Assembly (NCBI GenBank): GCA_963709115.1
Contig: CAVPVF010000016.1
Span: 429,986 to 493,985, forward strand
Direction: 5' to 3'
Length of the DNA stretch: 64,000 bases
From: an uncultured Actinomycetota bacterium
GTDB taxonomy: Bacteria; Actinomycetota; Actinomycetes; Actinomycetales; Microbacteriaceae
The first letter of the stretch is position 1; every line of letters starts with the position of its first letter. Positions 1 to 64,000 of the stretch are shown in pieces. The translations under genes and the position numbers were made by a program. Under the pieces are notes generated by a model that ran no database searches, had not been told where the DNA came from, and saw nothing but the letters and a program-made list of their open reading frames with translations.

Positions 1-606
1 TCGACATCCCCGTGCACCTCGCCGACCCCGAGCAGCTCGAGGCGATCACCGGCTACCGCGTGCACCGGGGGGCCCTCGCCGCATTCGAGCGGCCCGGCGC
101 TGCCCGACCCCGCCGTGCTGCTCGCGGACGCGCGCCGGGTGGTCGTGCTCGAGGACATCGTCGACCACACGAACGTCGGTGCGATCTTCCGCTCGGTCGC
201 GGCGCTCGGCGCCGACGCGGTGCTGGTGAGCCCGCGGTGCGCCGACCCGCTCTACCGGCGCAGCGTGCGGGTGAGCATGGGCACGGTGTTCCAGGTGCCG
301 TGGACCCGACTGCCCGAGTGGCCCGAGGCGGCAGCGGATGCTGCGCGCCCACGGCTTCTCGATCGCCGCCCTCGCCCTCGCCGACGGCGCGGTCTCGCTC
401 CGCGACCTCGCCGCCGACCCGCCCGAGCGGCTCGCGCTCGTGTTCGGCGCCGAGGGCGACGGGCTCAGCAGCGCACGCGCTCGAGGCCGCCGACCGCGTC
501 GTCACGATCCCCATGGCGCACGGCGTCGACTCGCTCAACGTCGCGGCCGCCGCGGCCGTCGTGCTCTACGCCCTCGCCGTCGATGCGCGAGGGCCGGGCG
601 CGATGA
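1..606 (+). CDS. TrmH/SpoU-family RNA 2'-O-methyltransferase, 5'-partial at the window edge; reading frame broken about 3 times
   Basis: Conserved SpoU segments appear in three different frames: VVVLEDIVDHTNVGAIFRSVAALGADAVLVSPRCADPLYRRSVRVSMGTVFQVPW, ERLALVFGAEGDGLS, and RVVTIPMAHGVDSLNVAAAAAVVLYAL. The stop TGA at 604-606 overlaps the next ATG (ATGA). Confidence 0.7.
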   Translation, partial: STSPCTSPTPSSSRRSPATACTGGPSPHSSGPALPDPAVLLADARRVVVLEDIVDHTNVGAIFRSVAALGADAVLVSPRCADPLYRRSVRVSMGTVFQVPWTRLPEWPEAAADAARPRLLDRRPRPRRRRGLAPRPRRRPARAARARVRRRGRRAQQRTRSRPPTASSRSPWRTASTRSTSRPPRPSCSTPSPSMREGRAR

Positions 607-1899
607 GCCCGGACCGTTCCGCGCCCGACGCGCGCAGCGCGTGTACCGCCGACGCCGCATCGTCGTGTTCGGCGCCCTCGCCCTGGTGCTCGCGCTGCTC
701 ACGACCGGCGGCGTTCTACACCGCGAACGCGCTCGGCGCGCCCATCCCCGCGGCCGCGCCCGCAGGTCACCGACCCCGACCCGATCGTCGCGGCGCCGCA
801 GGCGCTCGCGCTGCCGGGCTTCGGCGAGCTACGCGGTGGGCGCGGTCGGGTTCGACGGCCTGCTCGCCGCCGGCAACGAGCAGCAGCCCGATGCCGACGG
901 CGAGCATCACGAAGGTCATCACCGCGCTCGTGGTCCTCGAGCGACACCCGATCCCGGCGGGCGAAGGCGGCCCCGAGATCGCCTACACCGAGGCCGACGT
1001 CGACATCTACTGGGACATGGTCGCCCAGAACGGCGTCGGTGGCGCCCGTGCGCGCCGGGTCGACGCTCACGCTGCGCGAGAGCCTCGAGGCGATGCTGCT
1101 GCCCTCGGGCAACAACTACTCGATCTCGATCGCGAACTGGGCGTTCGGGTCGGTCGACGCGTTCCTCGAGCGCGCCCGCACCTGGCTCGACGAGCACGGC
1201 CTCGTCGAACACCCGCATCGCGGACTCGAGCGGCCTCTCGCTCGACAACGTGAGCACGGCCGCCGACCTCGTCGCAGCTCGGCAAGCTCGCGCTCGCAGA
1301 CTCCCGCCCTCGCCGAGATCGTGGCGACGCAGTCGGTCGACATCCCCGAGCTCGGCACGCTCGACGAACGGCAACAAGCTCCTCGGCACGCACGGCGTCG
1401 ACGGCATCAAGACCGGCACCACCGACGATGCCGCGAACCTGCTCTTCTCGGCGGACTACGCGGTGGGCTCGTCGACCGTGACGGTCGTCGGCGTGGTGCT
1501 CGGCGGCGAGACGCACGCCGTGCTGAACGAGCGCGATCGCCGCGCTGCTCGACTCGCGTCGCGCCCGGGTTCCACGAGGTGGCGCCGCTCGAGGCCGAAC
1601 GAGGCCCTCGCGGAGTACGACACCCCGTGGGGCGATACCGCCCGCGCGCGCACGACCGGCGGGGCATCCGTCGTCGTGTGGAGCGACACCCCGGTCGACG
1701 TCGAGGTGCACGCCGACCCGCTGACGCTCGCGGACCGCGGCGACGAGGTGGGCACGGCCGTCGTGCGCGCCGGCTCGCAGGAGATCACCGTGCCCGCTCG
1801 TGCTCGACGCCTCGCGATCGACGATCCGGGCACGTGGTGGCGCCTCACGAACCCCGGCGCGCTCGACGCCGCGGACGACTCAGTCGGGCGAGCGAGTAG
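603..1899 (+). CDS. D-alanyl-D-alanine carboxypeptidase (serine peptidase S11, PBP5/DacB-like); multiple frame breaks
   Basis: Segments ASITKVITALVVLERHP (SxxK), LLPSGNNYSISIANWAFGS (SGN) and GVDGIKTGTTDDAANLLF (KTG) carry the classic S11 active-site triad. The N-terminal TM/signal RIVVFGALALVLALL is present. The pieces are spread over three frames; the end could be anywhere in 1899-1930. Confidence 0.75.
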
Positions 1900-2675
1900 G
1901 GCCCGGCATCCGGTCGCTTCGCCGAGATGAGGTCGCCCGACGACTGGTGGCGGATGCGGCGGAGCACCCACGGCACGAGGTACTCGCGCGCCCACGAGAG
2001 GTCCTCGACGCGCGCCTGCCGCCAGGTGCCGGTGGGGAGCGGCTCGGGCTTCATCGGCTCGAGGTCGTTCTCGACGTTCAGCGCGGCGAGCACCATGCGC
2101 GCGACCGTGTGGTGGCCGAGCGAGTTGAGGTGCAGCCGGTCGGGGGACCACATGCGCTGGTCCTGGATCTCGGTGAGGGCCCACTGGTCGGCGACGATGC
2201 AGTCGTACCGCTTCGCGATCGTGCGGAGGTTCTCGTTGTAGATCGCCACCTTGCCGCGGATGCCGCGGAACACCGGCGAGAAGCCGACGTCGACGCCGGT
2301 GAAGATGACGATCGTGGCGTGGTCGCGGGACAGTCGCTCGATCGCGTACTCGAACCGCGCCGAGATCTCGTCGGGGTCGGTGCGGGGCCGGATGACGTCG
2401 TTGCCGCCCGCCGAGATCGTGATGAGGTCGGGGCGCAGCGCGAGCGCCGGCTCGAGCTGCTCGTCGATGATCTGCTGGATGAGCTTGCCGCGCACCGCGA
2501 GGTTCGCGTACGCGAAGTCCTCGGTGCCCTGCGAGAGCACCTCGGCGACGCGATCGGCCCAGCCGCGGTGGCCGCCGGGCACGGTCGGCTCGGGGTCGCC
2601 GATGCCCTCCGTGAACGAATCGCCGAGGGCGACGTAGCGGGACCAGGGATGCTGCTGCGTGACCATGCCCTCCAT
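1845..2675 (-). CDS. SGNH/GDSL-family hydrolase (lipase/esterase), intact
   Basis: Intact 276-aa ORF with the N-terminal GDSFTEG block (GDS motif), a GGND block and a DxxH-like C-terminus. Confidence 0.85.
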   Translation of the reverse strand: MEGMVTQQHPWSRYVALGDSFTEGIGDPEPTVPGGHRGWADRVAEVLSQGTEDFAYANLAVRGKLIQQIIDEQLEPALALRPDLITISAGGNDVIRPRTDPDEISARFEYAIERLSRDHATIVIFTGVDVGFSPVFRGIRGKVAIYNENLRTIAKRYDCIVADQWALTEIQDQRMWSPDRLHLNSLGHHTVARMVLAALNVENDLEPMKPEPLPTGTWRQARVEDLSWAREYLVPWVLRRIRHQSSGDLISAKRPDAGPYSLARLSRPRRRARRGS

Positions 2676-2731: not shown

Positions 2732-4539
2732 GTGAGCACCGCGACCCCCTCCGGCCACCAGCCGGGCACCTCGGCCGCCGAACACCTCTCCCCGTCGTTC
2801 CCCGAGCGGGCGGCTTGGGGCACCGCCAGCAAGCTGCGCGCCTGGCAGGCCGAAGCCCTCGAGCAGTACCTCGCCGAGCAGCCGCGCGACTTCCTCGCCG
2901 CCGCGACCCCCGGCGCCGGCAAGACCACCTTCGCCCTGCGCCTCGCCGCCGAGCTGCGGGCCCAGCGCGTCATCGACCGCATCACGGTCGTCGCGCCCAC
3001 CGACCACCTCAAGCGCCAGTGGGCGGATGCCGCGGCCCGCGCCGGCATCCGGCTCGACCCGGGGTTCCGCAACGCCCACGGCCAGAGCGCCCGGCACTTC
3101 CACGGCGTCGCCGTGACCTACGCGCAGGTGGCGATGCGGCCCGGCGCTGCACCGCGAGCTCACGATCTCGGGCCGCACCCTCGTGATCCTCGACGAGGTG
3201 CACCACGGCGGCGACGCGCTCTCGTGGGGCGACGCGATCCGCGAGGCGTTCGAGCCCGCGACCAGGCGGCTCTCGCTCACCGGCACCCCGTTCCGCTCCG
3301 ACACCGCGCCGATCCCGTTCGTGCACTACGAGCCCGACGCGCAGGGCGTGCGCCTCTCGAAGACCGACTACGACTACGGCTACGGGCGCGCCCTCGCCGA
3401 CGGCGTCGTGCGCCCGGTGCTCTTCATGATCTACGCCGGGCACATGCGGTGGCGCACCAAGGCCGGCGACGAGATGGAGGCGCGGCTCGGCGAGGACAAC
3501 ACGAAGGACATCACCTCGTCGGCCTGGCGCACCGCGCTCGAGCCGACCGGGCGAGTGGATCCCGGCGGTGCTGCAGGCCGCCGACCGCCGGCTCACCGAG
3601 GTGCGGCACGGCATCCCCGACGCCGGCGGGCTCGTGATCGCGACCGACCAGACCGTCGCCCGCGCCTACGCGCAGATCCTCGAGGGCATCTGCGGCGAGC
3701 CGGTCACGGTCGTGCTCTCCGACGAGAAGGAGGCGAGCGCGCGCATCGAGGAGTTCTCGGGCAACACGCGCCGGTGGATGGTCGCCGTGCGCATGGTGTC
3801 CGAGGGCGTCGACGTGCCGCGCCTCGCGGTGGGCGTCTACGCCACGAGCGCCTCGACGCCGCTGTTCTTCGCGCAGGCGATCGGCCGCTTCGTGCGCGCG
3901 CGCCGCCGCGGCGAGACCGCGTCGGTGTTCCTGCCGAACGTGCCGACGCTCATGAACCTCGCGGCGCAGCTCGAGCTCGAGCGCGACCACGCCCTCGACC
4001 GGCGCAGCGGCGACGGCGACGACGACGGACTCGACGACAGCCTGCTCGAGTCCGCGAACCGCGAGGAGCGCGCCTCGGAGGAGGCGGGGCTCGGCACGTG
4101 GGAGGCGATCGGGTCGGACGCCTCGTTCGACCGGGTGCTCTACGACGGCACCGAGTTCGGCACGCTCGCCGAGCCCGGCAGCGACGAGGAGTACGACTTC
4201 ATCGGCATCCCCGGACTGCTCGAACCCGAGCAGGTGTCCGAGCTCCTGCGGCACCGGCAGGCGCGGCAGGCCCGTCGGGCGGGGGAGCGGCGCAGGCACA
4301 CGGCCGACGACGAGGAGTCCGGCCGCGCCGAGCCGGTGGCGCTCTACCGCACCCTGAAGGAGCAGCGCTCGCTGCTCAACAGCCTCGTCGGGCTGTGGGC
4401 ACGGCACACCGGCGAGGCGCACTCCCAGGTGCACGCCGAGCTGCGCCGGGTGTGCGGCGGTCCGGCCGTCGCGCAGGCCACCGTGACCCAGCTGCAGGCG
4501 CGCATCGACCTGCTGCGGCGGCGGCTCGGCAGCCGCTGA
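2732..4539 (+). CDS. DEAD/DEAH-box superfamily-2 helicase (conserved actinobacterial ATP-dependent helicase, acidic C-terminal tail); 2 frame breaks
   Basis: Walker A TPGAGKTTFAL and DEVH box ILDEVHHGG are present, followed by SLTGTPFRSD (motif III-like). The helicase C-domain segment VIATDQTVARAYAQIL...MVAVRMVSEGVDVPRL is also present. The tail is Asp/Glu-rich. A GTG start at 2732 is in frame with the ORF beginning 2675. Confidence 0.65.
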
Positions 4540-4610
4540 CGCGATCGCCGCGAAGGCGGGCCGGATGCCGCATCCGCTCGCCCGTCCGTCGCCTGTGCGA
4601 GCATGGGCGG

Positions 4611-6042
4611 ATGGACCGTCGCACCCGGGTGCTCGTCGTCGCCATCGTCGTCTCGTTCATCGCGTTCCTCGACGGCGCCGTCATCAACGTGGCGCTGCCC
4701 TCGATCGCGGCCGAGCTCGGCGGCGGACTCGCCCTGCAGCAGTGGGCGGTGGACGCGTACCTGCTGACGCTCGGCTCGTTCATCCTGCTCGCCGGCTCGC
4801 TGTCGGACTCGTTCGGCCGGCTCCGCATGATCCGCATCGGCCTCTACGGCTTCGCCGCGACGTCGGTGCTCTGCGCGCTCGCGCCGACGGGCGTCGTGTT
4901 CGTCATCGGCCGAGCGCTGCAGGGAGGAGCGGGCGCCCTGCTCGTGCCGAGCTCGCTCGCGCTCATCATCGCCACGTTCCCCAAGTCCGAGCAGGGCCGC
5001 GCGATCGGGCGATGGACGGCGTGGACCACGAGCGCGTTCCTGATCGGACCGCTGTTCGGCGGGGTGCTGGTCGACCTCCTCTCGTGGCGGGCCGCGTTCT
5101 GGATCAACGTGGTGCCGATCGCGGTCGTCCTCGTGCTCATGCACGCGTTCGGGCGCGACGAGCCGAACCCGAACCGCGAGCGGATCGACTGGCTCGGCGC
5201 GGCGCTCGGCGTGATCGGGCTCGGCGGCACGGTGTTCGCCCTCATCGAGCAGGAGCGCTACGGCTGGGGTTCGCCGATCGTGTTCGTGCCGCTCGTCGTC
5301 GGCCTCGCCGCCCTCGTGGCGTTCGTGCTGTGGGAGCGACGAGCACCGCAGCCGATGCTGCCGCTCAGCCTGTTCGACGCCAGGAACTTCGCCGCCGGCA
5401 ACCTCGCCACCGTCTTCATCTACGCGTCGTTCTCGCTCGGGCCCTTCGTGATGACGATCTTCCTGCAGCAGACGGCGGGCTTCTCGGCGACGGTGGCCGG
5501 GCTCGCCACCCTGCCGCCCACGATCATGCTCGTGCTGCTGGGGTCGTGGTTCGGCGGCCTCTCGACGCGGTTCGGCCCCCGCATCTTCATGACGCTCGGC
5601 CCCATCCTCGTCGCGCGTCGGCTACCTGCTCACCCTCGGCGTCGAGCCCGACCTGAACTACTGGGTGCAGTTCCTGCCCGGCCTCATCGTCGTCGGACTC
5701 GGCATGGCGATGACCGTCGCGCCGCTCACCTCGGCGATCCTCGGGGCGGTCGATCCCGATCGCGCGGGCATCGGATCGGCCGTGAACAACGCGGTCGCCC
5801 GCATCGCGGGGCTCGTCGCGATCGCCAGCCTCGGCGTGATCGTCGGAACGCAGATCGACGTGACCGGGTACCACCGCGCGGCGATCGCCACGGCGGTCTT
5901 CCTCGTCATCGGCGGCGTCATCTCCTGGATCGGCATCCGCAACCCCGTGCCGACACCGGGTGCGACGGGCGCGACCCCGCGGCCGACGGCGTCGGCGCCG
6001 TCGACCGGATCGACGCACGTCCCGCCGCACACCGCCGAGTGA
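4611..6042 (+). CDS. MFS transporter (DHA2/EmrB-QacA-like, 14-TM drug:H+ antiporter type); 1 frame break near 5620
   Basis: MDRRTRVLVVAIVVSFIAFLDGAVINVALPSIAAELGG is the typical DHA2 N-terminus. Hydrophobic helices run throughout. The C-terminus continues in ORF 5665..6042. Confidence 0.75.
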
Positions 6043-6056
6043 GCGGCAGGCCGCGC

Positions 6057-7285
6057 TCAGCTCGTGGCGGTGCCCGCCTGCTCCGGCGCGACGAGCCCGA
6101 CGAGCTCGGCCGCCGCGTCGAGGGCGGCCATCAGGTCGTCGGTGAGGTCGTCGACGTGCTCGAGGCCGATCGAGAGCCGCACGACCGCGGCGTCCGGCTT
6201 CGCCTCGCCGGCGACCGGCCGGTGCGTGAGCGAGGCCGGGTGCTGCACGAGGGAGTCGACCCCGCCGAGCGACACGGCGTGGGTCACGAGCTCGCACGAC
6301 TCGGTGAACCGCGCCGCGGCGTCGTAGCCGCCCGCGAGCTCGAGCGCGATGATCGAGCCCGGGCCCGCGAGCTGCGTGCCGACGAGGCCGGCGGGGTCCT
6401 GCCCGGGCAGGCCCGGGTAGTGCACGCGCGCGACGGCCGGGTGCGCGAGCAGGCGCTCGGCGAGCACCCGGGCGGTCTCCTGCTGGGCGCGCACGCGCAC
6501 CGGCAGGGTGCGGAGGCCGCGGTGCAGCAGGTAGGCGGCCATCGGATGCAGCAGCCCGCCCGTGAGCGCGCGGACGCGGCGCAGCCGCTCCACCCACTCG
6601 CGGTCGGCGGCGACGACGCCGCCCATCACGTCGCCGTGTCCGCCGAGGTACTTCGTGGCGCTGTGCAGCACGAGCGTGGCGCCGAACTCGGCCGGACGCT
6701 GCAGCACGGGGGTGGCGAAGGTGTTGTCGACGAGCACGCGGCACGTCGCCCGCGGCATCCGCCACCTGTCGCAGGTCGAGCGAGCTCGAGCGTCGGGTTC
6801 GCGGGGGTCTCGACGACGACCAGGCCGGTGTCGGGCTCGATCGCCGCGGCGATGCCCGCGGCATCCGTCCACGTGACCCGCGTGCCGAGCAGGCCGCCCT
6901 CGAGCACGTGGTCGGTGCCGCCGTAGAGCGGGCGCACGGCGACGACGTGCGGCTTGCCGGCCGACGCGGTGGCGATGAGCGTCGCGGCGAGCGCCGCCAT
7001 GCCGCTCGCGAACGCGACGGCGCCCTCGGTGCCCTCGAGGCCGGCGAGGGACTCCTCGAAGCGGGCGACGCCGGGCTGCCAGAGCCGCTGGTAGACCGCG
7101 GAGCGCCCCTCGCCGAGGTCGTGGCCGGTGGCGAGCTCCTCGTAGGAGAGGCCGCCGGTCTCGACGGAGCCGAGCGGGTTGGTGGTGGAGAAGTCGATGA
7201 CGGGCACGTGGGATCCGCTCGCTCGGACCCCGGCCATGCCGCCGTGGACGGCGCGGGTCTCGAACTGCGACGACGATGTCTGCAT
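6057..7285 (-). CDS. Cys/Met-metabolism PLP-dependent enzyme (cystathionine gamma-synthase / O-succinylhomoserine sulfhydrylase family, MetB-like); 1 frame break
   Basis: N-terminal QFETRAVHGG, then an SATKYLGGHGDVMGGVV segment typical of the PLP-lysine region and a C-terminal GGVDSLVQHPASLTH. ATG start at 7285 found by ORF arithmetic. Confidence 0.8.
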
Positions 7286-7395: not shown

Positions 7396-7872
7396 ATGGC
7401 GCAGAAACCCGAACTCGACCGCGTCGACCGCGCGCTGCTCCAGGCGCTCTCGACCAACGCGCGCGCCTCGGGCGCCGCACTCGCCGCCGAGGTCGGCGTC
7501 GCCGAGTCCACGGTATCGCTCCGTCTCCGCCGCCTGCAGAGCCTCGGCACCGTGCGCGGCTACCGGGTCGACGTCGACCTCGCCTCGCTCGGCGTCTCGC
7601 TGCAGGCGCTCATCGCGATCCGGCTCGTCAAGCACGACCGCAGCGAGATCGACGCGTTCCGCGCGCAGGTGCCGCACCTGCCCGGCGTGCTCGGCGTGTT
7701 CCACATGGCCGGCGCCGAGGACTACCTGCTGCACGTCGCCGCCCGCGATGCCGAGGAGCTGCGCGAGTTCGTGCTCGCGCACCTCACGGGGCATCCCGCC
7801 GTCGCGCACACCGAGACCAACCTGATCTTCGAGCACGTCGACGGCGACGGCTGGAACAAGCTCGTCGGCTGA
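7396..7872 (+). CDS. Lrp/AsnC-family transcriptional regulator, intact
   Basis: Intact 158 aa with an N-terminal HTH (LDRVDRALLQALSTNARASGAALAAEVGVAESTVSLRLRRL) and a RAM domain. It is divergent from the metB-like gene across a 110-bp low-GC intergenic region. Confidence 0.85.
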   Translation: MAQKPELDRVDRALLQALSTNARASGAALAAEVGVAESTVSLRLRRLQSLGTVRGYRVDVDLASLGVSLQALIAIRLVKHDRSEIDAFRAQVPHLPGVLGVFHMAGAEDYLLHVAARDAEELREFVLAHLTGHPAVAHTETNLIFEHVDGDGWNKLVG

Positions 7873-51357: not shown

Positions 51358-52157
51358 ATGGACAATCTCGGGCGTCATATTCGTATCGGAGATGGTCGGC
51401 ACGGCGATGCTGGTGCTGCTCGGCTGCGGCGTGGTCGCCAACGTCGCCCTGGCGAAGACCAAGGGCAACGGCGGCGGCTTCCTGTTGGTCAACTTCGGCT
51501 GGGGCCTCGCGGTCTTCGCCGGCGTCATCGTCGTCGGTCGTGTCGGGTGCGCACATCAACCCGGCGGTCACCCTCGGCCTCGCGGCCAACATCGGGCAAG
51601 GGCGGCACGGAGTTCGTCCCGGGCATCCCGGTCGACGCGGCTTCGATCTCCACCTACATCGGCGCCCAGCTCATCGGCGCGATCATCGGTGCCGTCGTCG
51701 TGCTGGCTCGCCTACAAGCAGCACTTCGACGACGAGCCCGAGCCCGGCGCTCAAGCTCGCGGTCTTCTCGACCGGCCCCGCCATCCGCTCCTACGCCTGG
51801 AACCTCATCACGGAGATCATCGGCACGTTCGTGCTCGTGTTCGTCGTGATCAGCTTCGGCTTCTGGGGCGACCCCGACACCGTCGTCCCCGCGGGGCTCG
51901 GACCGCTCGGTGCGCTGCCCGTGGCCCTGCTGGTCGTCGGGATCGGCGCCTCCCTCGGTGGCCCGACCGGGTATGCGATCAACCCCGCCCGTGACCTCGG
52001 ACCCCGCATCGCGCACGCCTTCCTTCCCATCAAGGGCAAGGGCAGCAGCGACTGGGGATACTCCTGGGTGCCGGTCGTCGGCCCGATCATCGGCGGCGTG
52101 CTCGCCGGTCTCGCCGCGATCCCGCTCGGCGACATGGTCGCCACCGCCATGGGATGA
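51358..52157 (+). CDS. glpF: Glycerol uptake facilitator (MIP/aquaglyceroporin GlpF); at least 4 frame breaks
   Basis: [26 protein letters not shown]...[13 protein letters not shown] (first NPA) ... [27 protein letters not shown] (second NPA) ... [15 protein letters not shown]. Confidence 0.85.
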
Positions 52158-52261: not shown

Positions 52262-53784
52262 ATGGCCGACTACATCCTGGCGATCGACCAGGGAACGACG
52301 AGCACGCGCTCGATCATCTTCGACAAGAAGGGGTCGATCGTCGCGTCGGGGCAGCTCGAGCACGAGCAGATCTTCCCGAAGGCCGGCTGGGTCGAGCACG
52401 ACCCGATGGAGATCTGGCACAACACGCGCGAGGTGATCGGGCACGCCCTCGGCAAGGCCGACCTCACCCGGCACGACATCGCGGCCGTCGGCATCACCAA
52501 CCAGCGCGAGACCGCGGTGGTGTGGGACAAGAACACCGGCGAGCCCGTCTACAACGCGATCGTCTGGCAGGACACCCGCACCCAGCCCATCGTCGACCGG
52601 CTCGCGGCCGACGGCGGCGTCGAGCGGTTCAAGCAGGACGTCGGGCTGCCGCTCGCGACCTACTTCTCGGGCACGAAGATCGCCTGGATCCTCGAGAACG
52701 TCGAGGGTGCCCGCGAGCGGGCCGAGGCCGGCGACCTGCTCTTCGGCAACACCGACACGCTGGGTGCTCTGGAACCTCACCGGCGGCGTCGACGGCGGCG
52801 TGCACGCGACGGATGTCACGAACGCCAGCCGCACGATGTTCATGGACCTCGAGACGCTCAGCTGGCGCGACGACATCCTCGCCGCGTTCGGCGTGCCCCG
52901 CTCGATGATGCCCGACATCAGGAGCTCCTCCGAGGTCTACGGCGCAGGTCGAGTCGTCGAGCCTGCTGCGCGAGGTGCCGGTCGCCGGCATCCTCGGCGA
53001 CCAGCAGGCGGCGACGTTCGGCCAGGCGGCGTTCGACGCCGGCGAGTCGAAGAACACCTACGGCACCGGCAACTTCCTGATCTTCAACACCGACACCGAG
53101 ATCGTGCACTCGAAGAACGGGCTGCTCACCACCCTCGGCTACAAGCTCGGCGACCAGCCGGCGCACTACGCGCTGGAGGGGTCGATCGCCGTGACCGGGT
53201 CGCTGATCCAGTGGCTGCGCGACAACCTCGGGCTGATCTCGAGCGCGCCCGAGGTCGAGGAGCTCGCGAAGACGGTGGACGACAACGGCGGCGCGTACTT
53301 CGTGCCGGCGTTCTCCGGCCTGTTCGCGCCGTACTGGCGCTCCGACGCGCGCGGCGCGCTCGTCGGCCTCACGCGGTACGTGAACAAGGGCCACATCGCC
53401 CGCGCCGCCCTCGAGGCGACGGCCTTCCAGACCCGGGAGGTGCTCGACGCGGTCAACGCCGACTCGGGCGTCGACCTCACGGAGCTGAAGGTCGACGGCG
53501 GCATGATCGCGAACAACACGCTCATGCAGTTCCAGGCGGACATCCTCGGCGTGCCCGTGGTGCGTCCGGTCGTCGCGGAGACCACCGCGCTCGGCGCCGC
53601 CTACGCGGCCGGGCTCGCGGTCGGCTTCTGGTCCGACCTCGACGAGCTGCGCGCCAACTGGCAGGAGGACTCCCGCTGGGAGCCGAAGATGGAGGCCGAG
53701 GAGCGCGAGCGCCAGCTCCGGCTGTGGAAGAAGGCCGTCACGAAGACCTTCGACTGGGTCGACGACGACGTGTCGCACGGCTGA
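52262..53784 (+). CDS. glpK: Glycerol kinase GlpK; 2 frame breaks
   Basis: [52 protein letters not shown]...[31 protein letters not shown]...[13 protein letters not shown]...[22 protein letters not shown]...[24 protein letters not shown]. Confidence 0.9.
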
Positions 53785-53889: not shown

Positions 53890-54944
53890 TCAGGCCTTCG
53901 TGGCGGCGATCCACTGCTCGAGCTTGCGCGCGGCCGCGCCGCTGTCGATCGCCTCCTCGGCGACCGCCATCTTGTCGCGGAACCGGTCGAGGATCGGCGC
54001 GCTGGAACTGGCTCGGATCCTTGGCCAGCTCGAACGCGACGAGGCCGGCGGCGGCGTTCAGCACCACGATGTCGCGCACGGCGCCGCGCTCCCCCGCGAA
54101 CACCTCGTGCACGATCGCGGCGTTGTGCGCCGCGTCGCCCCCGACGAGGTCGTCGATGCTCGCGCGCGGGATGCCGAGGTCGCGCGGGTCGAGGTCGTGC
54201 TCCTTCACCGTGCCGCGGGAGACCTCCCACATGTGGCTGTGGCCGGTGGTCGTGAGCTCGTCGAGTCCGTCGTCGCCGCGGAAGACGAGCGCGGTGGCGC
54301 CGCGGGTCTGGAACACGCCGACGATGAGCGGCACGCGGTCGAGGTGGGCGACGCCGACCGCGGAGGCCTCGGGGCGGGCCGGGTTGCAGAGCGGGCCGAG
54401 GAAGTTGAAGACCGTCGGCACGCCGAGCTCGGCGCGCACCGGCCCCGCGTGCCGGAAGCCGGGGTGGAAGGCGCCCGCGAACGCGAAGGTGATGCCGGCC
54501 TCGCCGAGCACCTGCGCCGACCCGCTCCGCGGGGAGCGACAGGTCGAGGCCGAGGGCGGCGAGCACGTCGGAGGATCCCGACGACGAGCTCGCGGCGCGG
54601 TTGCCGTGCTTGATCACGGGCACACCGGATGCCGCGGCGACGACGGAGGCCATGGTCGACACGTTCACCGTGCCGAACCGGTCGCCGCCCGTGCCGACGA
54701 TGTCGAGCGCCATCGGGTCGACGGGCAGCGGCACGGCGTGCTCGAGCACGGCGTCGCGGAAGCCCACGATCTCGTCGACCGTCTCCCCCTTCACGCGCAG
54801 CGCGATGAGGAATCCGGCGAGCTGGGCGTGCGTGACGGTGCCCGTCATCACCTGCTCCATGCACCACGCCGCATCCGACACGCTGAGATCTTCGCCGTCG
54901 AGGAGCGAGGAGATGATGGTCGGCCAGGTCTGTGCGGCGGGCAT
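53890..54944 (-). CDS. trpD: Anthranilate phosphoribosyltransferase TrpD (the paralog typically adjacent to ctaE in actinobacteria); 2 frame breaks
   Basis: [52 protein letters not shown]...[12 protein letters not shown]...[15 protein letters not shown]. The stop is TGA at 53890. Confidence 0.8.
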
Positions 54945-55075: not shown

Positions 55076-55714
55076 ATGGGGAGCGTGACGAGCACCTCAA
55101 TCACTTATCAGGCGACCGCGCCCGTGATCAAGCGCCCCAACACCGTAGCGGTGGGCACGATCGTCTGGCTCGGCAGCGAGGTCATGTTCTTCGCGGGGCT
55201 CTTCGCGATCTACTTCACGCTGCGATCGACGTCGCCAGAGCTGTGGGCGTTCGAGGCGGATCGCCTGAACTTCCCGTTCTCGCTGACGAACACGATCATC
55301 CTCGTGCTCTCGTCGTTCACCTGCCAGTTCGGCGTCTTCGCGGCGGAGCGGCTCCAGCCGTACGCCACCGGCTGGAAGCCGACGCAGTGGGGCATGGTCG
55401 AGTGGTTCTTCCTCACCTACGCCATGGGCGCGATCTTCGTCGCCGGCCAGATCTGGGAGTACGCCACGCTCGTCTCCGAGGGCATCGCCATCGACTCCAA
55501 CTCCTACGGGTCGGCGTTCTACCTCACGACCGGCTTCCACGGCCTGCACGTCACGGGTGGCCTGATCGCCTTCCTGCTCGTCATCGGCCGCGTGTTCGCG
55601 GTCAAGAACTTCGGCCACCGCGAGGCGACGAGCGCCATCGTCGTCTCGTACTACTGGCACTTCGTCGACGTCGTCTGGATCGGCCTGTTCCTCGTCATCT
55701 ACGTCCTCAAATAG
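55076..55714 (+). CDS. ctaE: Cytochrome c oxidase subunit III, intact
   Basis: [21 protein letters not shown]...[14 protein letters not shown]...[26 protein letters not shown]...[24 protein letters not shown]. Almost co-linear with mycobacterial CtaE. Confidence 0.9.
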
Positions 55715-55764
55715 CAGCAGCAGGAGCGCCACGAACAGCATGCCCGCGAACAGGAAGAAACTCG

Positions 55765-56559
55765 ATGAACCGCTCGAAGCGACGCACCGGACGCCGGCAC
55801 CCGCTCGCCACCGTCGCGCTGCTGGCGCTCGGACTCGTCTTCACCGGCGGCGCGTACGCGGCCATCAGCAGCGGCACCGCTGCGCAGGCCGAGGCGGAGC
55901 CGACGTCGCAGGAGACGATCGAGCAGGGCAAGAAGCTCTTCCAGGCCAACTGCGCCACCTGCCACGGCCTCGAGGCCCAGGGCACCGACAACGGCCCGAG
56001 CCTCATCGGCGTCGGCGCGGCCGCCGTCGACTTCCAGGTCGGCACCGGCCGCATGCCGATGCAGATGCAGGGCCCGCAGGCGCAGCAGAAGCCGCCGCAG
56101 TTCACCGACGAGCAGACCAAGCAGCTCGCCTACTACGTGGCCTCCCTCGGCCCCGGCCCCGACATCCCCGCCGAGCACCTCGTCAACGGCGGCGGCGACG
56201 CCGCGAACGGCGCGGAGCTCTTCCGCATCAACTGCGCGATGTGCCACAACGTCGCCGGCGCCGGCGGCGCGCTCACCGAGGGCAAGTTCGCTCCCCCGCT
56301 CACGGATGTCTCGGGCGTGCACATCTACGAGGCCATGGTCACCGGCCCGCAGAACATGCCGGTGTTCAACGACCTGAACATCTCGCCCGAGGACAAGCGC
56401 GACGTCATCACCTACCTCAAGTACGTGCAGGACAACCGCTCGCCCGGCGGCTTCGAGCTCGGCTCGCTCGGGCCGGTCGCAGAGGGCCTGTTCATCTGGA
56501 TCTTCGGTCTCGGCGCGATCGTCGCGGTCACCGTGTGGATCACGGCGAAATCCAACTAG
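55765..56559 (+). CDS. qcrC: Cytochrome bc1 complex di-haem cytochrome c subunit QcrC, intact
   Basis: Signal peptide, then two CxxCH motifs (CATCHG and CAMCHN), and a C-terminal TM anchor. Confidence 0.9.
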   Translation: MNRSKRRTGRRHPLATVALLALGLVFTGGAYAAISSGTAAQAEAEPTSQETIEQGKKLFQANCATCHGLEAQGTDNGPSLIGVGAAAVDFQVGTGRMPMQMQGPQAQQKPPQFTDEQTKQLAYYVASLGPGPDIPAEHLVNGGGDAANGAELFRINCAMCHNVAGAGGALTEGKFAPPLTDVSGVHIYEAMVTGPQNMPVFNDLNISPEDKRDVITYLKYVQDNRSPGGFELGSLGPVAEGLFIWIFGLGAIVAVTVWITAKSN

Positions 56560-56593: not shown

Positions 56594-57673
56594 ATGGCCC
56601 AGGACGACCACAGCGGCACTGAGCTCGCCGCTGCCGACTCGTCGCACGCCGCGCTCGAATCCGACGGCCTCGCCGGGTACCGCGCTGATCGCATCCGACG
56701 CGTTCGAGAACCCCGGATTCCCGCCCCACCGTCCCCGCGTCACCGACGAGGACCCCAAGCGGGAGAAGCGCGCGACCAGCGCACGGTCTACACGCTCTTC
56801 TACCTCTCGATCCTCGGCAGCGTCTGGGCCGTCGCGGCGTACATGCTCTTCCCGATCGAGTCGAACGACGTCGGCGCGGTGCGCCTGAACAACATGTTCA
56901 TCGGCCTCGGCGCCACGCTCGCCCTCCTCGGCCTCGGCTTCGGCGTCGTGCACTGGGGCAAGTCGCTCATGGCCGACGTCGAGCTCGCCGACGAGCGCCA
57001 CCCGATCGGCGGCTCGCCCGAGACGCAGGCCGCCGCGGCCAAGGTCTTCTCCGACTCCAACGAGGAGTCGGGCTTCACCCGCCGTTCGGTCATCCGCAAC
57101 AGCCTCATCGGCGCGCTCATCGCCTTCCCGCTCCCCGCGGTGGTGCTCTTCCGCGGCTTCGCCCCGCAGGACCAGCTGCCCGTCGAGCTCCTCAGCCACA
57201 CCATGTGGGCCAAGGGCACGCGTCTCGCGCTCGACCCGTCGGGCGTGCCGATCAAGGCCGCCGACGTCACCATCGGCAGCGCGTTCCACGTCATCCCCGA
57301 GGGCCTCGCCGAGCTCGAGCACGGCAAGCTCGAGGAGAAGGCCAAGGCGGCCGTCCTCCTCATGCGCCTCGAGCCGAGCGAGCTCAACCAGGCACCCGAT
57401 CGCGAGTCCTGGTCGTACGACGGCATCGTCGCCTACTCCAAGATCTGCACGCACGTCGGATGCCCCGTTGCGCTCTACGAGCAGCACACCCATCACCTGC
57501 TCTGCCCCTGCCACCAGTCGCAGTTCGACGTGGCGAACCACTGCGAGGTCATCTTCGGCCCGGCCAAGCGGCCCCTCCCGCAGCTGCCGATCGCCGTCGA
57601 CGACGAGGGCTACCTCATCGCGCAGAGCGACTTCACCGAACCCGTCGGCCCGAGCTTCTGGGAGCGCAGTTGA
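56594..57673 (+). CDS. qcrA: Cytochrome bc1 Rieske iron-sulfur subunit QcrA; a compensating frame-break pair near the N-terminus
   Basis: Rieske boxes CTHVGCP and CPCHQSQF are present. There are three N-terminal TM helices, as in actinobacterial QcrA. Confidence 0.85.
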   Translation: MAQDDHSGTELAAADSSHAALESDGLAGYRADRIRRVREPRIPAPPSPRHRRGPQAGEARDQRTVYTLFYLSILGSVWAVAAYMLFPIESNDVGAVRLNNMFIGLGATLALLGLGFGVVHWGKSLMADVELADERHPIGGSPETQAAAAKVFSDSNEESGFTRRSVIRNSLIGALIAFPLPAVVLFRGFAPQDQLPVELLSHTMWAKGTRLALDPSGVPIKAADVTIGSAFHVIPEGLAELEHGKLEEKAKAAVLLMRLEPSELNQAPDRESWSYDGIVAYSKICTHVGCPVALYEQHTHHLLCPCHQSQFDVANHCEVIFGPAKRPLPQLPIAVDDEGYLIAQSDFTEPVGPSFWERS

Positions 57674-59281
57674 GAACCGCACCATCCACCAACGGTCACG
57701 CAGAAGCGATCGTTCACGGCCTCCGCGTCCGTCTACGTCAACGAGCGCACCAGCCTCGCCGGGTTCGTCAAGGAGCTCGGACGCAAGGCGTTCCCCGACC
57801 ACTGGTCGTTCCTGCTCGGCGAGATCGCGCTCTTCAGCTTCGTCGTCATCCTGATCTCGGGCACGTTCCTGACGTTCTTCTTCCAGGCGTCGATGGCCGA
57901 GGTGCACTACGACGGCTCCTACGTGCCCCTCAAGGGCGTCGAGATGTCGGTCGCGATGGCGTCGACGCTCGACATCTCGTTCGACATCCGCGGCGGCCTG
58001 TTCGTGCGCCAGATGCACCACTGGGCGGCCCTGCTGTTCGTCGCCGCCATCGGCCTGCACATGCTGCGCATCTTCTTCACGGGTGCGTTCCGCAAGCCGC
58101 GCGAGTTCAACTGGATCATCGGCTTCACCCTCTTCATCCTCGCGATGGGCGAGGGCTTCACCGGCTACTCGCTCCCCGACGACCTGCTCTCGGGCAACGG
58201 CCTCCGCATCATCGACGGCCTGGTCAAGGGCATGCCCGATCATCGGCACCTGGACCTCGTTCCTGCTCTTCGGCGGCGAGTTCCCGGGCACCGCGATCGT
58301 CGGCCGCCTCTACACGCTGCACATCCTGCTGCTGCCGGCGATCATCGTCGCGCTCATCGCGATCCACCTGGTGCTCGTCGTCGTGCACAAGCACACGCAG
58401 TACGCCGGCGCCGGGCAAGACCCAGCAGAACGCGGTCGGCCCGCCCATCCTGCCGATCTACGCGGCGAAGGCCGGCGGCTTCTTCTTCATCATCTTCGGC
58501 GTCCTGGCGCTCATCGCGTCGCTGTTCACGATCAACCCGATCTGGAACTACGGCCCGTACGACCCCTCGCCGGTCTCGGCGGGCACGCAGCCCGACTGGT
58601 ACATCGGCTTCGCCGACGGCGCCCTGCGCCTGATCCCGCCGGGCTGGGAGTTCGTGTGGCTCGACCGCACCTGGTCGTTCAACATCCTCGTCCCGCTCAT
58701 CGCGATCGGCATCTTCATCCTGCTCGTGGTCGCCTACCCGTTCATCGAGGCGTGGGTGAAGGGCGACAAGCGCGAGCACCACATCGCCGACCGTCCGCGC
58801 AACGCGCCGACCCGCACCGCGATCGGTGCCGCCGGTGTCACGTTCTACGCCGGCCTCTGGGCGGCGGCGAGCTCCGACATCCTCGCGACGCACTTCTCGC
58901 TCACGATGGAGGGCGTCATCCACGCCCTGCAGGCCATGGTGATCATCGGCCCGTTCGTCGCCTACTTCATCGCCAAGCGCGTCTGCATCGCGCTGCAGAA
59001 GAAGGATCGCGAGATCGTGCTGCACGGCTACGAGTCGGGTCGCATCGTCAAGCTCCCCGGCGGCGAGTTCATCGAGGTGCACCAGCCGCTCGACGAGTAC
59101 GACCGCTGGCGCCTCGTGAGCTACGAGACCTACGAGCCGCTGATGATCCGTCCGAACTCGCGCGGCAAGATCACCGTCGGCCAGCGGCTGCGCGCGGGCA
59201 TGTCGCGGTGGTTCTTCGAGGACCGCATCGCGCCGGTCACGAAGGGCGAGCTCGAGGCGTCGCACTCCGACGCACCACTGA
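57670..59281 (+). CDS. qcrB: Cytochrome bc1 cytochrome b subunit QcrB; at least 3 frame breaks; a TTG start overlaps the qcrA stop
   Basis: [31 protein letters not shown]...[44 protein letters not shown]...[11 protein letters not shown]...[22 protein letters not shown]...[24 protein letters not shown]. Co-linear with mycobacterial QcrB. Confidence 0.9.
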
Positions 59282-59313
59282 GCCGACCGCACTCGGATTC
59301 GGGCACCGGTCCC

Positions 59314-60180
59314 ATGTCGATCGACACGACATGGCTCCGGTGCCCGAACTGCTTCTCGGACCTCTCGGCGATCGATGAGCGCGTCTTCGGCTGCGCCGCC
59401 GGGCATCGCTTCGACCGCGCCAGGCAGGGCTACCTCACGCTGCTGCCGCCGCGCGCGCCGCGCACGGTCGGCGACGATCGGGAGATGCTCGCGGCCCGTG
59501 CCGCGCTGCTCGACGGTGGCGCCTACTCCCCCATCGCCGCGGCGATCGCCGACGCCGTCGCCGCCGTGCCGCCCGACGGGCATCCGGGCGCATCGCTCCG
59601 CATCGCCGACCTCGGGTGCGGCACCGGCTACTACTCGGCGAGCATCGCTCGCGCGGTGCCCGACGCCGCGTTCCTCCTCGCCGACCGATCGCCCGATGCG
59701 GTGCGGATCAGCCTGCGCGCGCTCCCCGCGGCGACGGGCGTGGTGCTCGACCTCTGGCGGCCGCTCCCGATCCGCGACGGCGTCGTCGACGTCGCCCTCA
59801 ACGTCTTCGCGCCCGCGCAACGGCGCCGAGTTCGCGCGCGTGCTCGGACCGAACGGACGGCTCGTCGTCGTCGTCCCAGCCGACGCGCACCTGCAGGAGC
59901 TCCGCGAGCCGGTGCGGTCCTCGACGTCCCCGCGGGCAAGGCCGACCGGGTCGCCGAGCAGCTCGCCGCGTCCGGCTTCGACGCCGAGCGTCGACGACGT
60001 CGATCGAGTACGCGCTCGAGACGGATGCCGCGACCCGCGGGCTCCTCGCCGGCATGGGCCCGTCGGCGCACCACGTCGACAGCCTGTCGTCGGCAGGCGA
60101 GTCCGGCGATGCGCCGATCGACGTCACGATCGCCGTCGATCGTCATCGTGTTCGCACGCTCGTCGGCGTCCTCCGCCTGA
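59314..60180 (+). CDS. RlmA(RrmA)-like Zn-ribbon SAM-dependent rRNA (guanine-N1) methyltransferase; about 3 frame breaks; 3' end approximate
   Basis: MSIDTTWLRCPNCFSDLSAIDERVFGCAAGHRFDRARQGYLTLLPP is an N-terminal Cys4 Zn ribbon like RlmA. LRIADLGCGTGYYSASIA is SAM motif I. ...VVDVALNVFAP...GRLVVVVPADAHLQELRE. Confidence 0.65.
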   Translation: MSIDTTWLRCPNCFSDLSAIDERVFGCAAGHRFDRARQGYLTLLPPRAPRTVGDDREMLAARAALLDGGAYSPIAAAIADAVAAVPPDGHPGASLRIADLGCGTGYYSASIARAVPDAAFLLADRSPDAVRISLRALPAATGVVLDLWRPLPIRDGVVDVALNVFAPAQRRRVRARARTERTARRRRPSRRAPAGAPRAGAVLDVPAGKADRVAEQLAASGFDAERRRRRSSTRSRRMPRPAGSSPAWARRRTTSTACRRQASPAMRRSTSRSPSIVIVFARSSASSA

Positions 60181-60254
60181 GCCGATCGGCGCGCAGGCGC
60201 GCGCGTCTCGATGCGTCGACGTCGGGACGAACCGCGTCCATCGGTTCCATACTG

Positions 60255-60927
60255 ATGGCATGGACGAGTGCTGCGGTGCCGCCGAGCCCCGACGGCTACG
60301 AAGAGGTCTTCGATGCGCGCTACGCCGGCAAGGTCGCACGTCGCTATCGCCGACGCGGGCTCACCTCGACCGAGCAGCGGCTCGTGGAGCTTCCTCGCCT
60401 CGACCGGCATCGAGGGTGCCTCCGTGCTCGAGGTCGGCGGCGGCGTCGGCGAGGTCCAGCTGGAGCTGCTCGCGCGAGGCGCGGCGCGCACGACGAACCT
60501 CGAACTCTCGGGCGCCTACGAGGCGGACGCGCAGCGACTGATCGACGAGGCCGGCGTCGGGGGCCGCGTCGACGCGGATCCTCGGCGTCGACCTCGCGCG
60601 AGCTCCCGGACGCCGTCGACCCCGCCGACGTCGTCGTGCTGCACCGAGTGGTGTGCTGCTACCCCGCCTACGAGCGCCTGCTGGGCGCCGCGGCCGATCG
60701 GGCACGTCGCACGATCGTCTTCACGCCACCCGCCCCGCACGATCTGGACGCGCGCGGCGGTCGGCGTCGAGCAACCTCATGGTCGGGCTCTCCGGGCGCA
60801 GCTACCGCGGGTTCGTCCACTCGCCCGACGGCGATGGCCGACGTCGCTTCGCCGGCACGGCTTCGAGCTCACGCTACCGCCACCGCGGGCTGGTCGTGGT
60901 GCGTCGTCGGGCGCGGTACGCGGATGA
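60255..60927 (+). CDS. Class I SAM-dependent methyltransferase (small, Methyltransf_23-like); about 3 frame breaks
   Basis: FDARYAGKVARRYRRRGLTSTEQRLVEFLASTGIEGASVLEVGGGVGEVQLELLARGAARTTNLELS...ADVVVLHRVVCCYPAYERLLGAAADRARRTIVF. Confidence 0.55.
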
Positions 60928-61015
60928 CCCGTGCGGCACGTGCGTGCGCACGCCGACGCGGAACGACGAAGCCCCGGCGCGATGCGCCGGGGCTTCGTCG
61001 ACGATGCGGATCGCG

Positions 61016-61439
61016 TCAGCGGGCGAAGTTGCCGCGGTAGTACTCGTAGACCCAGCCGACGAGGGCGACCACGACGATCGGGACGGCGATGAACGTGATC
61101 CAGAATCCGATCGCGAGCCCGAGGAATCCGAGCGCGGCGCCGCCGGCGAGCACGAACGGCCACCAGCTCCACGGGCTGAAGAACCCGAGCTCGGCGTCAC
61201 CGTCGTCGATGTTCGCGTCGAGGCGGTCTTCGGGCAGCTCGGCGCCCTGCGCCTTGTGCACCCGCCCGAGGTAGAACGCGATGAACGCGGCCAGGACGGC
61301 GGTCAGCGTGAGGGCGACGGTGCCGGCCCACTCCAAGCCGGGATCCTGCTCGTCGAGCGCGGACCAGATCGCGTAGACGACCGCCGATCAGGGCGAAGAA
61401 GGCGGCGAGGATCCAGAACAGGATGGCATTGGCGCGCAT
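61016..61439 (-). CDS. ctaF: Cytochrome c oxidase subunit IV (actinobacterial CtaF); 1 frame break
   Basis: MRANAILFWILAAFFALI...WAGTVALTLTAVLAAFIAFYLGRVHKAQGAELPEDRLDANIDDGDAELGFFSPWSWWPFVLAGGAALGFLGLAIGFWITFIAVPIVVVALVGWVYEYYRGNFAR. Sits immediately downstream of ctaD. Confidence 0.8.
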
Positions 61440-63173
61440 TTACTTGACTTCCTTCGTCGCCGCGTCGTAGACCGGTGCCTGCGGTGCATCCTTCGCCGGG
61501 CCGATGCCCACCGGGATGCCCGCTTCGGGGTGGTTGAGGTCGAACGCCGGCGCCTCCGAGCGGATGCGCGGGATCGACGTGAAGTTGTGTCGCGGCGGCG
61601 GGCAGCTCGTGGCCCACTCGAGCGAGCGTCCGTAGCCCCACGGGTCGTTGACGGTCACCTTCGGTGCGCGACGCGCGGTGATGTAGACGTTCAGGAGGAA
61701 CGGGATCATCGAGACGGCGAGGATGCCGGCGCCGATCGTCGACAGCTGGTTCATCCAGGTGATGTTGTCCTCGGGCAGGTACGAGTAGTACCGACGGGGC
61801 ATCGCGACGACGCCGAGCCAGTGCTGGATGAGGAAGGTCGTGTGGAAGCCGATGAACAGCAGCCAGAAGTGCCACTTGCCCAGCGTCTCGTTGAGCATCT
61901 TGCCGGTCCACTTCGGCCACCAGAAGTAGAAGCCCGCGAACATGGCGAACACGACCGTGCCGAAGACGACGTAGTGGAAGTGCGCCACCACGAAGTACGT
62001 GTCGGACACGTGGAAGTCGAGCGGCGGCGACGCGAGGATGACGCCGGTCAGGCCGCCGAACACGAAGGTGATGAGGAAGCCCAGCGACCAGAGCAGCGGC
62101 GTCTCGAACGTGATCGAGCCGCGCCACATCGTGCCGATCCAGTTGAAGATCTTCACGCCGGTCGGCACCGCGATGAGCATCGTCATGAGCGCGAAGAACG
62201 GCAGCAGCACCGAGCCCGTGACGTACATGTGGTGCGCCCACACGGTGACCGAGAGCGCGGCGATCGCGATCGTCGCGTAGATCAGCGTCTTGTAGCCGAA
62301 GATCGGCTTGCGGCTGAAGACCGGGAAGATCTCGGACACGATGCCGAAGAACGGCAGCGCGATGATGTAGACCTCGGGGTGGCCGAAGAACCAGAACAGG
62401 TGCTGCCACAGGATGACGCCGCCGTTGGCGGGATCGTAGATGTGGGCGCCGAAGATGCGGTCGGCGGCGGCGGCGAGGATCGCGGCGGCCAGCACCGGGA
62501 AGGCCATCAGCACGAGGATCGACGTGACGAGCGTGTTCCACGTGAAGATCGGCATGCGGAACATGGTCATGCCGGGCGCGCGCATCGTGATGATCGTCGT
62601 GATGAAGTTCACGGCGCCGAGGATCGTGCCGAAGCCCGAGAGGCCGAGGCCGAGCATCCAGAGATTGCCGCCGATGCCTGGCGAGAACGTCGTCGATGCG
62701 AGTGGTTGGTAGGCGAACCATCCGAACGAGGCGGCGCCCTGCGGCGTGAAGAAGCCGGCGACGGCGATCAGCGAGCCGAAGTTGAAGAGCCAGTACGCGA
62801 ACGCGTTGAGGCGCGGGAACGCGACGTCGGGCGCGCCGATCTGCAGCGGCATCAGCACGTTCGCGAAGCCGGCGAAGAGCGGCGTCGCGAACATCAGCAG
62901 CATGATCGTGCCGTGCATCGTGAACAGCTGGTTGTACTGCTCGCGGGTCTGGACGATCTCGAGGCCGGGCTCGAAGAGCTGCGCGCGGATGATGAGGGCC
63001 ATCACGCCGCCGATGCAGAAGTAGATGAACGCGGTGATCAGGTACAGGTACCCGATGACCTTGTGGTCGGTGGAGGTGATCCACCGGACGAGGATGTTGC
63101 CCTTGCGCTCGACCTTGGGAGTGCCGAACGGCGAGGCGCTCGCGGGACGAGCCGGTGCGGTCGTGGTGCTCAT
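61440..63173 (-). CDS. ctaD: Cytochrome c oxidase subunit I, intact
   Basis: Intact 577 aa with canonical haem/CuB ligand regions ([13 protein letters not shown], ...HFHYV...). Confidence 0.95.
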
Positions 63174-63179
63174 CGCGGC

Positions 63180-64000
63180 TTACTCTTCCTCTTTCAGCTC
63201 GGGCTCGCCCGTTCCGGGCAGGTTCTGGCGGCGGTCGTACTCGTTCGAGAGCTGGCCCTCCTGGCCGAGGTCGCGCAACGAGTCGATGTACTCCTCGTAC
63301 TCGGCCTCGGAGACGACCTGGACGTTGAAGAGCATCAGCGAGTGGTACTCGCCGCAGAGCTCGGCGCACTTGCCCTCGTAGGTGCCCTCGCGCTCGGGGA
63401 CGAACGACATGTAGTTCGTCTTGCCCGGGAACATGTCCTTCTTGTAGAGGAAGTCGACGACCCAGAACGAGTGGATGACGTCGCGCGACTCGAGCTCGAT
63501 CTCGACGTTCTTGCCGACGGGCAGGTACAGCGTCGGGAGCTCGGACTGGACGAGCGAGCCCGCGGCGCCCTCGTCGGAGAGCTGGCCCTGGATGCCGGGC
63601 GAGTAGACGTCTTCGTTGACGTAGTTGAAGTCCCACGCCCACTGCTTGGCGATGACCTCGACCTTGACGTCGATCTCGTCCTCGGCGAAGCGCTGCTCGA
63701 TCACCGGCCTGGTCGCGCGCGGTGAAGGCGAAGAAGCCGAGCACGAGGATCAGCGGCACGATCGTGTAGAAGACCTCGATCGGCATGTTGTAGCGCAGCT
63801 GCACCGGGAGGCCGGTCTGGCCCTTGCGGCGGCGGTAGGCGATGACGGCCCAGATCGTGAGGCCCCAGGTGATGACGCCGACGACGAGCAGCACGATCCA
63901 CGACGTGACCCAGAGGCCCGACACGAGCTCGGTGTGGTTCGTGACCGGCGGCTCACCCTCTTCGAACCCCGGGAGGAATCCGTTCAGCTGGGCCTGCGTG
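63180..64000 (-). CDS. ctaC: Cytochrome c oxidase subunit II (CuA), N-terminus beyond the window end; at least 1 frame break
   Basis: TM hairpin VSGLWVTSWIVLLVVGVITWGLTIWAVIAYRRRKG...NMPIEVFYTIVPLILVLGFF. C-terminal CuA domain ...DVIHSFWVVDFLYKKDMFPGK...GKCAELCGEYHSLM. Confidence 0.85.

Follow-up and report, generated by a model that had tools for sequence, protein, structure and literature searches.

Real genome decay of the Mycobacterium leprae type leaves inherited lesions, stop codons, deletions, and the marks of relaxed selection. Broken reading frames are also produced by sequencing and assembly. Long-read assembly that merges haplotypes, as in early FALCON, puts small insertions and deletions (indels) at heterozygous sites (Korlach et al. 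2017, PMC5632298), and Nanopore-only bins of low coverage keep indels, the residual errors being chiefly indels in homopolymers (Sereika et al. 2022, PMC9262707). The long-read metagenome-assembled genomes (MAGs) of the MFD series were built from Nanopore reads only, with Flye assembly, one round of Medaka, and no short-read polishing, and their authors noted microdiversity in the MFD soils (PMC12313526). Here, we describe a 64,000-nucleotide stretch of DNA from an uncultured actinomycetotal bacterium (assembly GCA_963709115.1, contig CAVPVF010000016.1, positions 429,986–493,985; hereafter, the window), in which most protein-coding genes are interrupted by one-base indels. Judging from the sequence of the window and its relatives, these frameshifts are very probably an artefact of the consensus and not a biological feature, in that the heterogeneity of co-occurring strains would have been collapsed in an unphased long-read assembly of a soil metagenome.

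The window has a G+C content of 72% and, judged by the identity of its CtaD protein and its conserved synteny, is a chromosomal stretch of Agromyces (Microbacteriaceae). The intact CtaD was 96% identical to that of Agromyces aerolatus and 94% identical to that of Agromyces sp. CF514, and the gene order ctaC-ctaD-ctaF ... qcrB-qcrA-qcrC-ctaE-trpD-glpK-glpF matched that of both. Reference loci were found with a scan of a genome collection for Lnt and with exact-protein look-ups of close DnaE2, SDR, and AsnC homologues. They included isolates, such as A. ramosus DSM 43045 (90.8% DNA identity) and Soil535 (L087; 89%); the MAG MFD04850.bin.2.312 of the MFD series (L005), which is the closest relative of the window (96.3% DNA identity); and contigs with names of the form contig_N from the ENA metagenome assemblies ERZ25039464, -504, -532, -536, -547, -586, and -591 (92–96% DNA identity). 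None of the reference loci was identical to the window, and the AsnC look-up gave six related contigs, the best at ~95%. Exact-protein look-ups of CtaD, QcrC, and SDR2 did not retrieve the source record.

The frame breaks were pervasive, as an earlier note on this DNA, made from its letters alone, had claimed. This was borne out by both a frame map and an indel catalogue. In the reference-free Viterbi frame map, which has six coding frames and a non-coding state, uses codon-position GC emissions, and forbids in-frame stops, 125 same-strand frame switches were counted across the window. The Viterbi junctions agreed with those obtained by tblastn with the Agromyces orthologues in ctaC, qcrB, trpD, glpK, and glpF. 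In the tblastn alignments, ctaC required one frame change, qcrB, trpD, and glpK two each, and glpF was also broken, whereas CtaD, qcrA, qcrC, and ctaE each read in one frame. For the indel catalogue, 1-kb tiles were aligned with MAFFT to at least two and up to nine relatives per tile, which covered 50 of the 64 kb, and only isolated 1-bp insertions or deletions private to the window were counted. The catalogue contained 99 insertions (C, 41; G, 41; T, 10; A, 7) and 17 deletions, or ~2.3 events per kb at an insertion-to-deletion ratio of ~6:1. The isolate genomes carried 0–0.2 private 1-bp insertions per kb (0–0.07 in L006, L087, L008, and L088). In a seven-way alignment of positions 19361–32921 (13.5 kb), the window showed 42 private insertion events, 41 of them of 1 bp, and eight private 1-bp deletions, and the six relatives agreed at these indel sites; L005 had three private 1-bp insertions in the same alignment. 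The count of at least 40 breaks in the earlier note was correct in that many breaks are real, but their true number is about three times that figure.

The indels were not placed at random. In 80 of the 99 private insertions, the extra base and its neighbour were the two alleles carried by relatives at one polymorphic column. For example, the window contains GAT-GC-CC where relatives have either GAT-C-CC or GAT-G-CC, and it reads GGG-C-GTC in place of the GGG-GTC or GGC-GTC of relatives. The extra base in tccgcg-c-atcgcg within tatC, which had been singled out previously, is real (position 26203) and falls at a G/C two-allele site. In a first region, 34 of 43 insertions were of this two-allele type against an expectation of 9.1 ± 2.7, and none of 2000 simulations with the same bases at random positions reached the observed number; a polymorphic column flanked 37 of these 43 insertions. 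In a second region, the numbers were 33 of 61 against 4.9 ± 2.2, and again the observed value was not reached in any of the 2000 simulations. Deletions behaved similarly: 12 of the 17 removed a column that is polymorphic among the relatives, against a background of 23.6% (binomial P ~5e-5 by our own arithmetic). The indels were also mostly outside homopolymers, as noted earlier, in that only 38 of the 99 insertions adjoined an identical base. In a first set of 42 insertions, the inserted base differed from both neighbours in 33, and the longest homopolymer in the window is 6 nt, apart from a T/A tract described below. An exact 43-mer across one private insertion had no match in the JGI metagenomes.

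Removing the catalogued events restored the genes. In the repair test, catalogued insertions were deleted and catalogued deletions were padded, and nothing else was changed. Eight genes (M20, WYL, DhaK, TrpD, QcrB, TatC, HelY, and Lnt) thereby regained a single frame at full length; the single-frame coverage of the reference protein after repair was 1.00 for M20, TatC, HelY, Lnt, DhaK, and TrpD and 0.99 for QcrB. The repair raised the coverage of DnaE2 from 0.61 to 0.85 and also improved the helicase, MFS-A, and PafC. In the eight fully restored genes, the repair uncovered neither nonsense codons nor large deletions. The repaired genes also showed a normal substitution spectrum. Codon position 3 accounted for 76% of the differences from orthologues in the repaired broken genes and 79% in the genes that were never broken. 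Per codon, nonsynonymous changes numbered 0.051 in the former group and 0.044 in the latter, and synonymous changes 0.157 and 0.156, respectively. In this comparison, the repaired genes bore no trace of relaxed selection. In the organism itself, the genes of the window are almost certainly undamaged.

Several procedures were tried and replaced in the course of these measurements. A gene table built from stop-to-stop open reading frames (ORFs) and tblastn was incomplete, and the table used here was obtained by transferring reference gene coordinates to the window through DNA alignments. A codon-position GC filter applied to whole ORFs failed to delimit coding segments because chimeric ORFs mix frames, and the Viterbi map took its place. 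Tiles of 4 kb with full coverage by high-scoring segment pairs left most tiles without references, so that 1-kb tiles were used instead. The longest stop-free stretch was uninformative as a readout of repair because off-frames lack stops at 72% GC, and it was replaced by the single-frame coverage of the reference protein.

The same kind of error was found in the sister assemblies of this population. The contig_N relatives had fragmented gene calls, which lay in different genes from those of the window, and their private 1-bp indels were likewise biased towards insertions, each contig having its own set. The number of private 1-bp insertions per kb was 6.1 in L093, 1.9 in L085, 0.9 in L094, 0.5 in both L097 and L098, 0.3 in L086, and 0.13 in L096, and the load in Illumina or isolate assemblies was near zero. 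Two-allele insertions accounted for 19 of 46 in L085 (null expectation, 3.7), 18 of 74 in L093 (8.9), six of eight in L094, and all six in L098. The recurrence of one signature at other sites in the sister contigs points to a specific and systematic artefact. The loads of L093 (ERZ25039586 contig_10070) and L096 (ERZ25039547 contig_21913) differ ~50-fold. In L093, 56 of the 74 insertions had no sampled second allele, and this majority suggests a second error source in that contig, possibly low coverage. Over the first 18 kb of the window, the nearest haplotype changed from L094-like to L093/L098-like and then to L085-like, as could happen if the consensus were collapsed or chimeric.

These observations can be accommodated by a simple sequence of events. 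Reads of several co-occurring and closely related strains would have been merged into one consensus. At a site of a single-nucleotide polymorphism (SNP) between strains, both alleles would then have been written side by side, giving a +1 insertion, or less often neither allele would have been kept, giving a −1 deletion. If indels are much likelier than mismatches in the error model of the consensus caller, the pair "AB" may outscore either single base when the reads are balanced between A and B, and scoring of this kind would account for both the 6:1 insertion bias and the differences in load from contig to contig. The expected outcome is ~2–3 one-base indels per kb and the interruption of most genes, since SNPs between strains occur throughout coding DNA; genes without such a call, or with three calls close together, would read as intact. 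The closest relatives of the window provide a setting for this scheme: L005 belongs to the MFD MAGs, and the contig_N names of the ENA contigs would suit the same pipeline.

Some points weigh against an origin in merged strains. The platform, the pipeline, and the read depth are inferred from the project of the closest relatives, which used Nanopore reads, Flye, and a single round of Medaka. Nineteen of the 99 insertions had no sampled second allele, and because of these and of the 38 insertions that touch an identical base, a minority of the insertions may be ordinary read-error residue. The number of indels per kb was weakly correlated with SNP density among mixed reference sets (Spearman rho 0.20, P = 0.16), a value that we do not use as evidence because it is confounded by the changing reference sets. 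The frames of the dacB-like gene, UvrA2, GlpK, GlpF, FKBP, VIT1, the Cys/Met PLP enzyme, and ImuB were not fully repaired, and PAC2 and QcrA were over-corrected by the conservative catalogue. This catalogue deals poorly with a small number of in-frame differences of several bases, including those in PAC2 and QcrA, and its counts are too low wherever error-prone references have gaps as well. Fourteen kb of the window (35–37, 39–48, and 59–62 kb) had fewer than two references and were judged by the frame map alone. Finally, natural recombination could also yield the haplotype mosaic seen in the first 18 kb.

Among the alternatives, ordinary sequencing error (random or homopolymer miscalls in long-read, 454, or Ion Torrent data of low coverage, unrelated to strain variation) is unlikely, but it deserves more weight than any other. 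It would account for the insertions that touch an identical base and for those without a second allele, both in the window and in L093, and low-coverage Nanopore bins are known to retain indels (PMC9262707). However, by our estimate, insertions placed at random in DNA of this composition would adjoin an identical base in ~50% of cases, which exceeds the observed fraction, and outside the T/A tract the homopolymers of the window do not exceed 6 nt. The documented Nanopore residue consists of homopolymer indels (PMC9262707), which most events here are not. The two-allele association is far greater than random expectation, and the deletions too fall on polymorphic columns. The same two observations, together with the ~6:1 insertion bias, contradict the proposal of the earlier note that the breaks are random indel noise, whereas its attribution of them to a low-quality consensus is supported. 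The other possibility that it raised, an intentional perturbation in which random indels were planted in a clean genome, can be given almost no credence. The indel load is admittedly high, and the window holds a very unnatural T46-A210 ... A101 tract, but indels planted at random would not match SNP columns or supply the second allele, as the simulations indicate, and independent public ENA contigs of the same population carry the same error type and signature at other sites.

Biological explanations fare no better. Most genes of the window are hit, including those for respiration, Tat export, and lipoprotein maturation, as might be seen in a lineage undergoing very recent mass pseudogenisation or genome decay. 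Nevertheless, no catalogued event was common to any relative aligned at its site, even at 94–96% DNA identity, the private indel sets differ among the sister assemblies, and mutation would not place the exact alternative allele of the population beside the resident one. Given also the clean repair, with neither nonsense mutations nor large deletions in the fully repaired genes, and a substitution spectrum equal to that of the intact genes, such decay is extremely improbable, and its dismissal in the earlier note stands. Recoding, in which programmed ribosomal frameshifting, transcriptional slippage, or RNA editing would mend the frames in vivo, is favoured only by the continuation of conserved protein sequence in a new frame past each break. 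It is scarcely credible when the contexts are heterogeneous and share no common slippery motif, orthologues lack the sites even when ~96% identical at the DNA level, and a density of ~2 sites per kb across almost all genes would be without precedent. It is very unlikely that a living Agromyces lineage really carries the extra bases, whether after an extremely recent burst of +1 insertions at polymorphic sites across the genome or with a dependence on large-scale frame correction in expression; the T46-A210 ... A101 tract would in that case be a genuine element.

Both broken and intact genes occur along the window. Each gene that the earlier note had called broken proved to be broken, the HelD-like gene by the Viterbi map only. 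On the plus strand, a SpoU/TrmH-like methyltransferase gene (1–606) contains three frame switches, and the adjoining gene for a dacB-like S11 D-Ala-D-Ala carboxypeptidase (603–1899) has nine private 1-bp insertions, three deletions, and eight switches. The GDSL lipase gene (1880–2675, minus strand) is intact, with no events, and the DEAD/ResIII helicase gene (2732–4539, plus strand) is broken, with two frame switches and one catalogued insertion. It is followed at 4540–6083 by a gene for an MFS transporter of ~512 amino acids, which the window shares with L085, L093, L094, L096, L097, and L098 but not with L086 or the isolate Soil535; this gene is a presence/absence polymorphism within the population. 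The gene for the Lrp/AsnC regulator (7396–7872, plus strand) is intact, and its exact protein is common to 21 contigs of the same population. On the minus strand, the DnaE2 error-prone polymerase gene (11506–14975) is broken, with 10 private insertions, one deletion, and 14 switches, and imuB (14999–16544) has a single frameshift near 16058. The only RNA gene detected in the window with Rfam and ARAGORN was a tRNA-Leu(GAG) (17456–17540, minus strand; 50.5 bits with Rfam), which shows no obvious indel damage.

Further along the plus strand, the M20 peptidase gene (17663–18990) is broken by two private insertions. The tatC region, delimited from stop to stop by the reference ORF (25914–26900), has four insertions, including that at 26203, and one deletion, and the HelY-like helicase gene that follows (26904–29344) has four insertions and two deletions. 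The gene for the apolipoprotein N-acyltransferase Lnt (29369–30923) is otherwise intact but carries one private insertion at 29607. Both SDR genes had been listed as intact. This holds for SDR2 (47939–48703, plus strand), but SDR1 (33665–34472, plus strand) changes frame at 33892–33893, at a private inserted G of the two-allele type. The rest of the earlier note's list of intact genes (CtaD, CtaE, QcrC, DhaL, Lrp/AsnC, the GDSL lipase, and the RibD-like ORF) was upheld. The gene for a UvrA2-like ABC ATPase (36566–39020, plus strand) is broken, with seven insertions and one deletion in the catalogue and eight switches in the frame map. The UvrD/HelD-like helicase gene (45250–47403, plus strand) has 13 frame switches and was judged by the Viterbi map alone because no tile there had at least two references.

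In the last quarter of the window, the minus-strand gene dhaL (49461–50108) is intact, and the neighbouring dhaK (50119–51129, minus strand) is broken by three private insertions. The plus-strand gene glpF (51358–52157) has five frame switches, and glpK (52262–53784, plus strand) passes through frames 2, 3, and 1, with junctions near 52760 and 52950. The minus-strand gene trpD (53890–54944) is broken by two private insertions, ctaE and qcrC (55076–56559, plus strand) are both intact, and qcrB (57670–59281, plus strand) is broken by three private insertions. On the minus strand, ctaD (61440–63173) is intact and encodes 577 amino acids, and ctaC (63170–64000) is broken at ~63706 by a private two-allele G insertion. 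Between qcrC and qcrB, qcrA carries one extra private base at 56660 and two inserted bases at 56774–56775. These sum to +3, so that QcrA reads as one ORF, yet ~38 of its codons are probably scrambled. An ORF that looks intact in this window therefore need not be correct. The long ORFs at 3183–6926, 12874–16701, and 57205–60180, against which the earlier note had cautioned, do exist, and each crosses several frames or genes in the frame map; ORF-finder output is indeed not reliable here. In the stretch after qcrB, for which there is no close reference, only ~560 of the 867 nt of the gene for an RlmA-like methyltransferase of CF514 map to 59314–61018, and the frame map is mostly non-coding at 60.1–61.0 kb.

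A strain-variable islet lies at 39016–42374, between uvrA2 and the Lactamase_B/RibD_C genes. It contains a frameshifted epoxide-hydrolase gene (~39.05–40.15 kb, minus strand), which is ~77% identical to copies in Streptomyces, an ORF for a membrane protein of 150 amino acids (41238–41690, minus strand), and a MarR-like ORF (41743–42285, plus strand). At the same site, L090 instead encodes PadR together with two proteins of 464 and 83 amino acids, and A. ramosus diverges from the window directly after uvrA2. The islet also includes the T/A tract (40584–41035), in which 46 T residues are directly followed by 210 A residues, a GC-rich spacer of 95 nt beginning with GGGGGAAGTCAGGGCG, and 101 A residues, after which the sequence continues with GGGGGACGGAGACG. 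The tract is without parallel in 1.9 Mb of related loci, and neither the fetched loci nor the JGI metagenomes contained a match to its spacer. When the tract was searched against Rfam with permissive settings, all hits were sub-threshold and due to the homopolymer runs, and neither flanking repeats nor a palindrome was found apart from the T and A runs themselves. The tract is probably assembly or basecalling junk or a misjoin.

The frame breaks are of practical rather than biological consequence. ORF calls, pseudogene counts, completeness estimates, ratios of nonsynonymous to synonymous substitution rates (dN/dS), and protein databases that draw on this contig will be corrupted, and the same applies to sister Nanopore-only soil contigs, in which private 1-bp insertions occur at ~0.1–6 per kb. 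The error signature, a private additional base that turns a population SNP into a dinucleotide, is recognisable and correctable, but quality checks centred on homopolymers do not look for it. It should be removable by correcting frames against a reference or by polishing that is strain-aware or uses short reads.

When the window is compared with known systems, genome decay of the Mycobacterium leprae type resembles it in that many conserved genes are interrupted beside intact neighbours, but the features of real decay listed at the outset, from inherited lesions to relaxed selection, were not seen here. Nanopore-only MAGs (PMC9262707, PMC12313526) share with the window the visible symptom of fragmented gene calls, and its nearest relatives are contig_N soil contigs and an MFD MAG. 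However, those papers attribute the errors mainly to homopolymers and coverage below 40×, whereas most events in the window lie outside homopolymers and are tied to strain SNPs. The early FALCON case (PMC5632298) is similar, in that the unphased consensus of similar haplotypes turned nucleotide differences into small, gene-breaking indels, which read phasing prevents. That case concerned the two haplotypes of a diploid bird sequenced with PacBio continuous long reads, whereas the window would represent soil bacterial strains in a metagenome, probably sequenced with Nanopore. The two-allele dinucleotide, the 6:1 insertion bias, and the density of ~2 events per kb were measured here and are not taken from Korlach et al. 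(PMC5632298).

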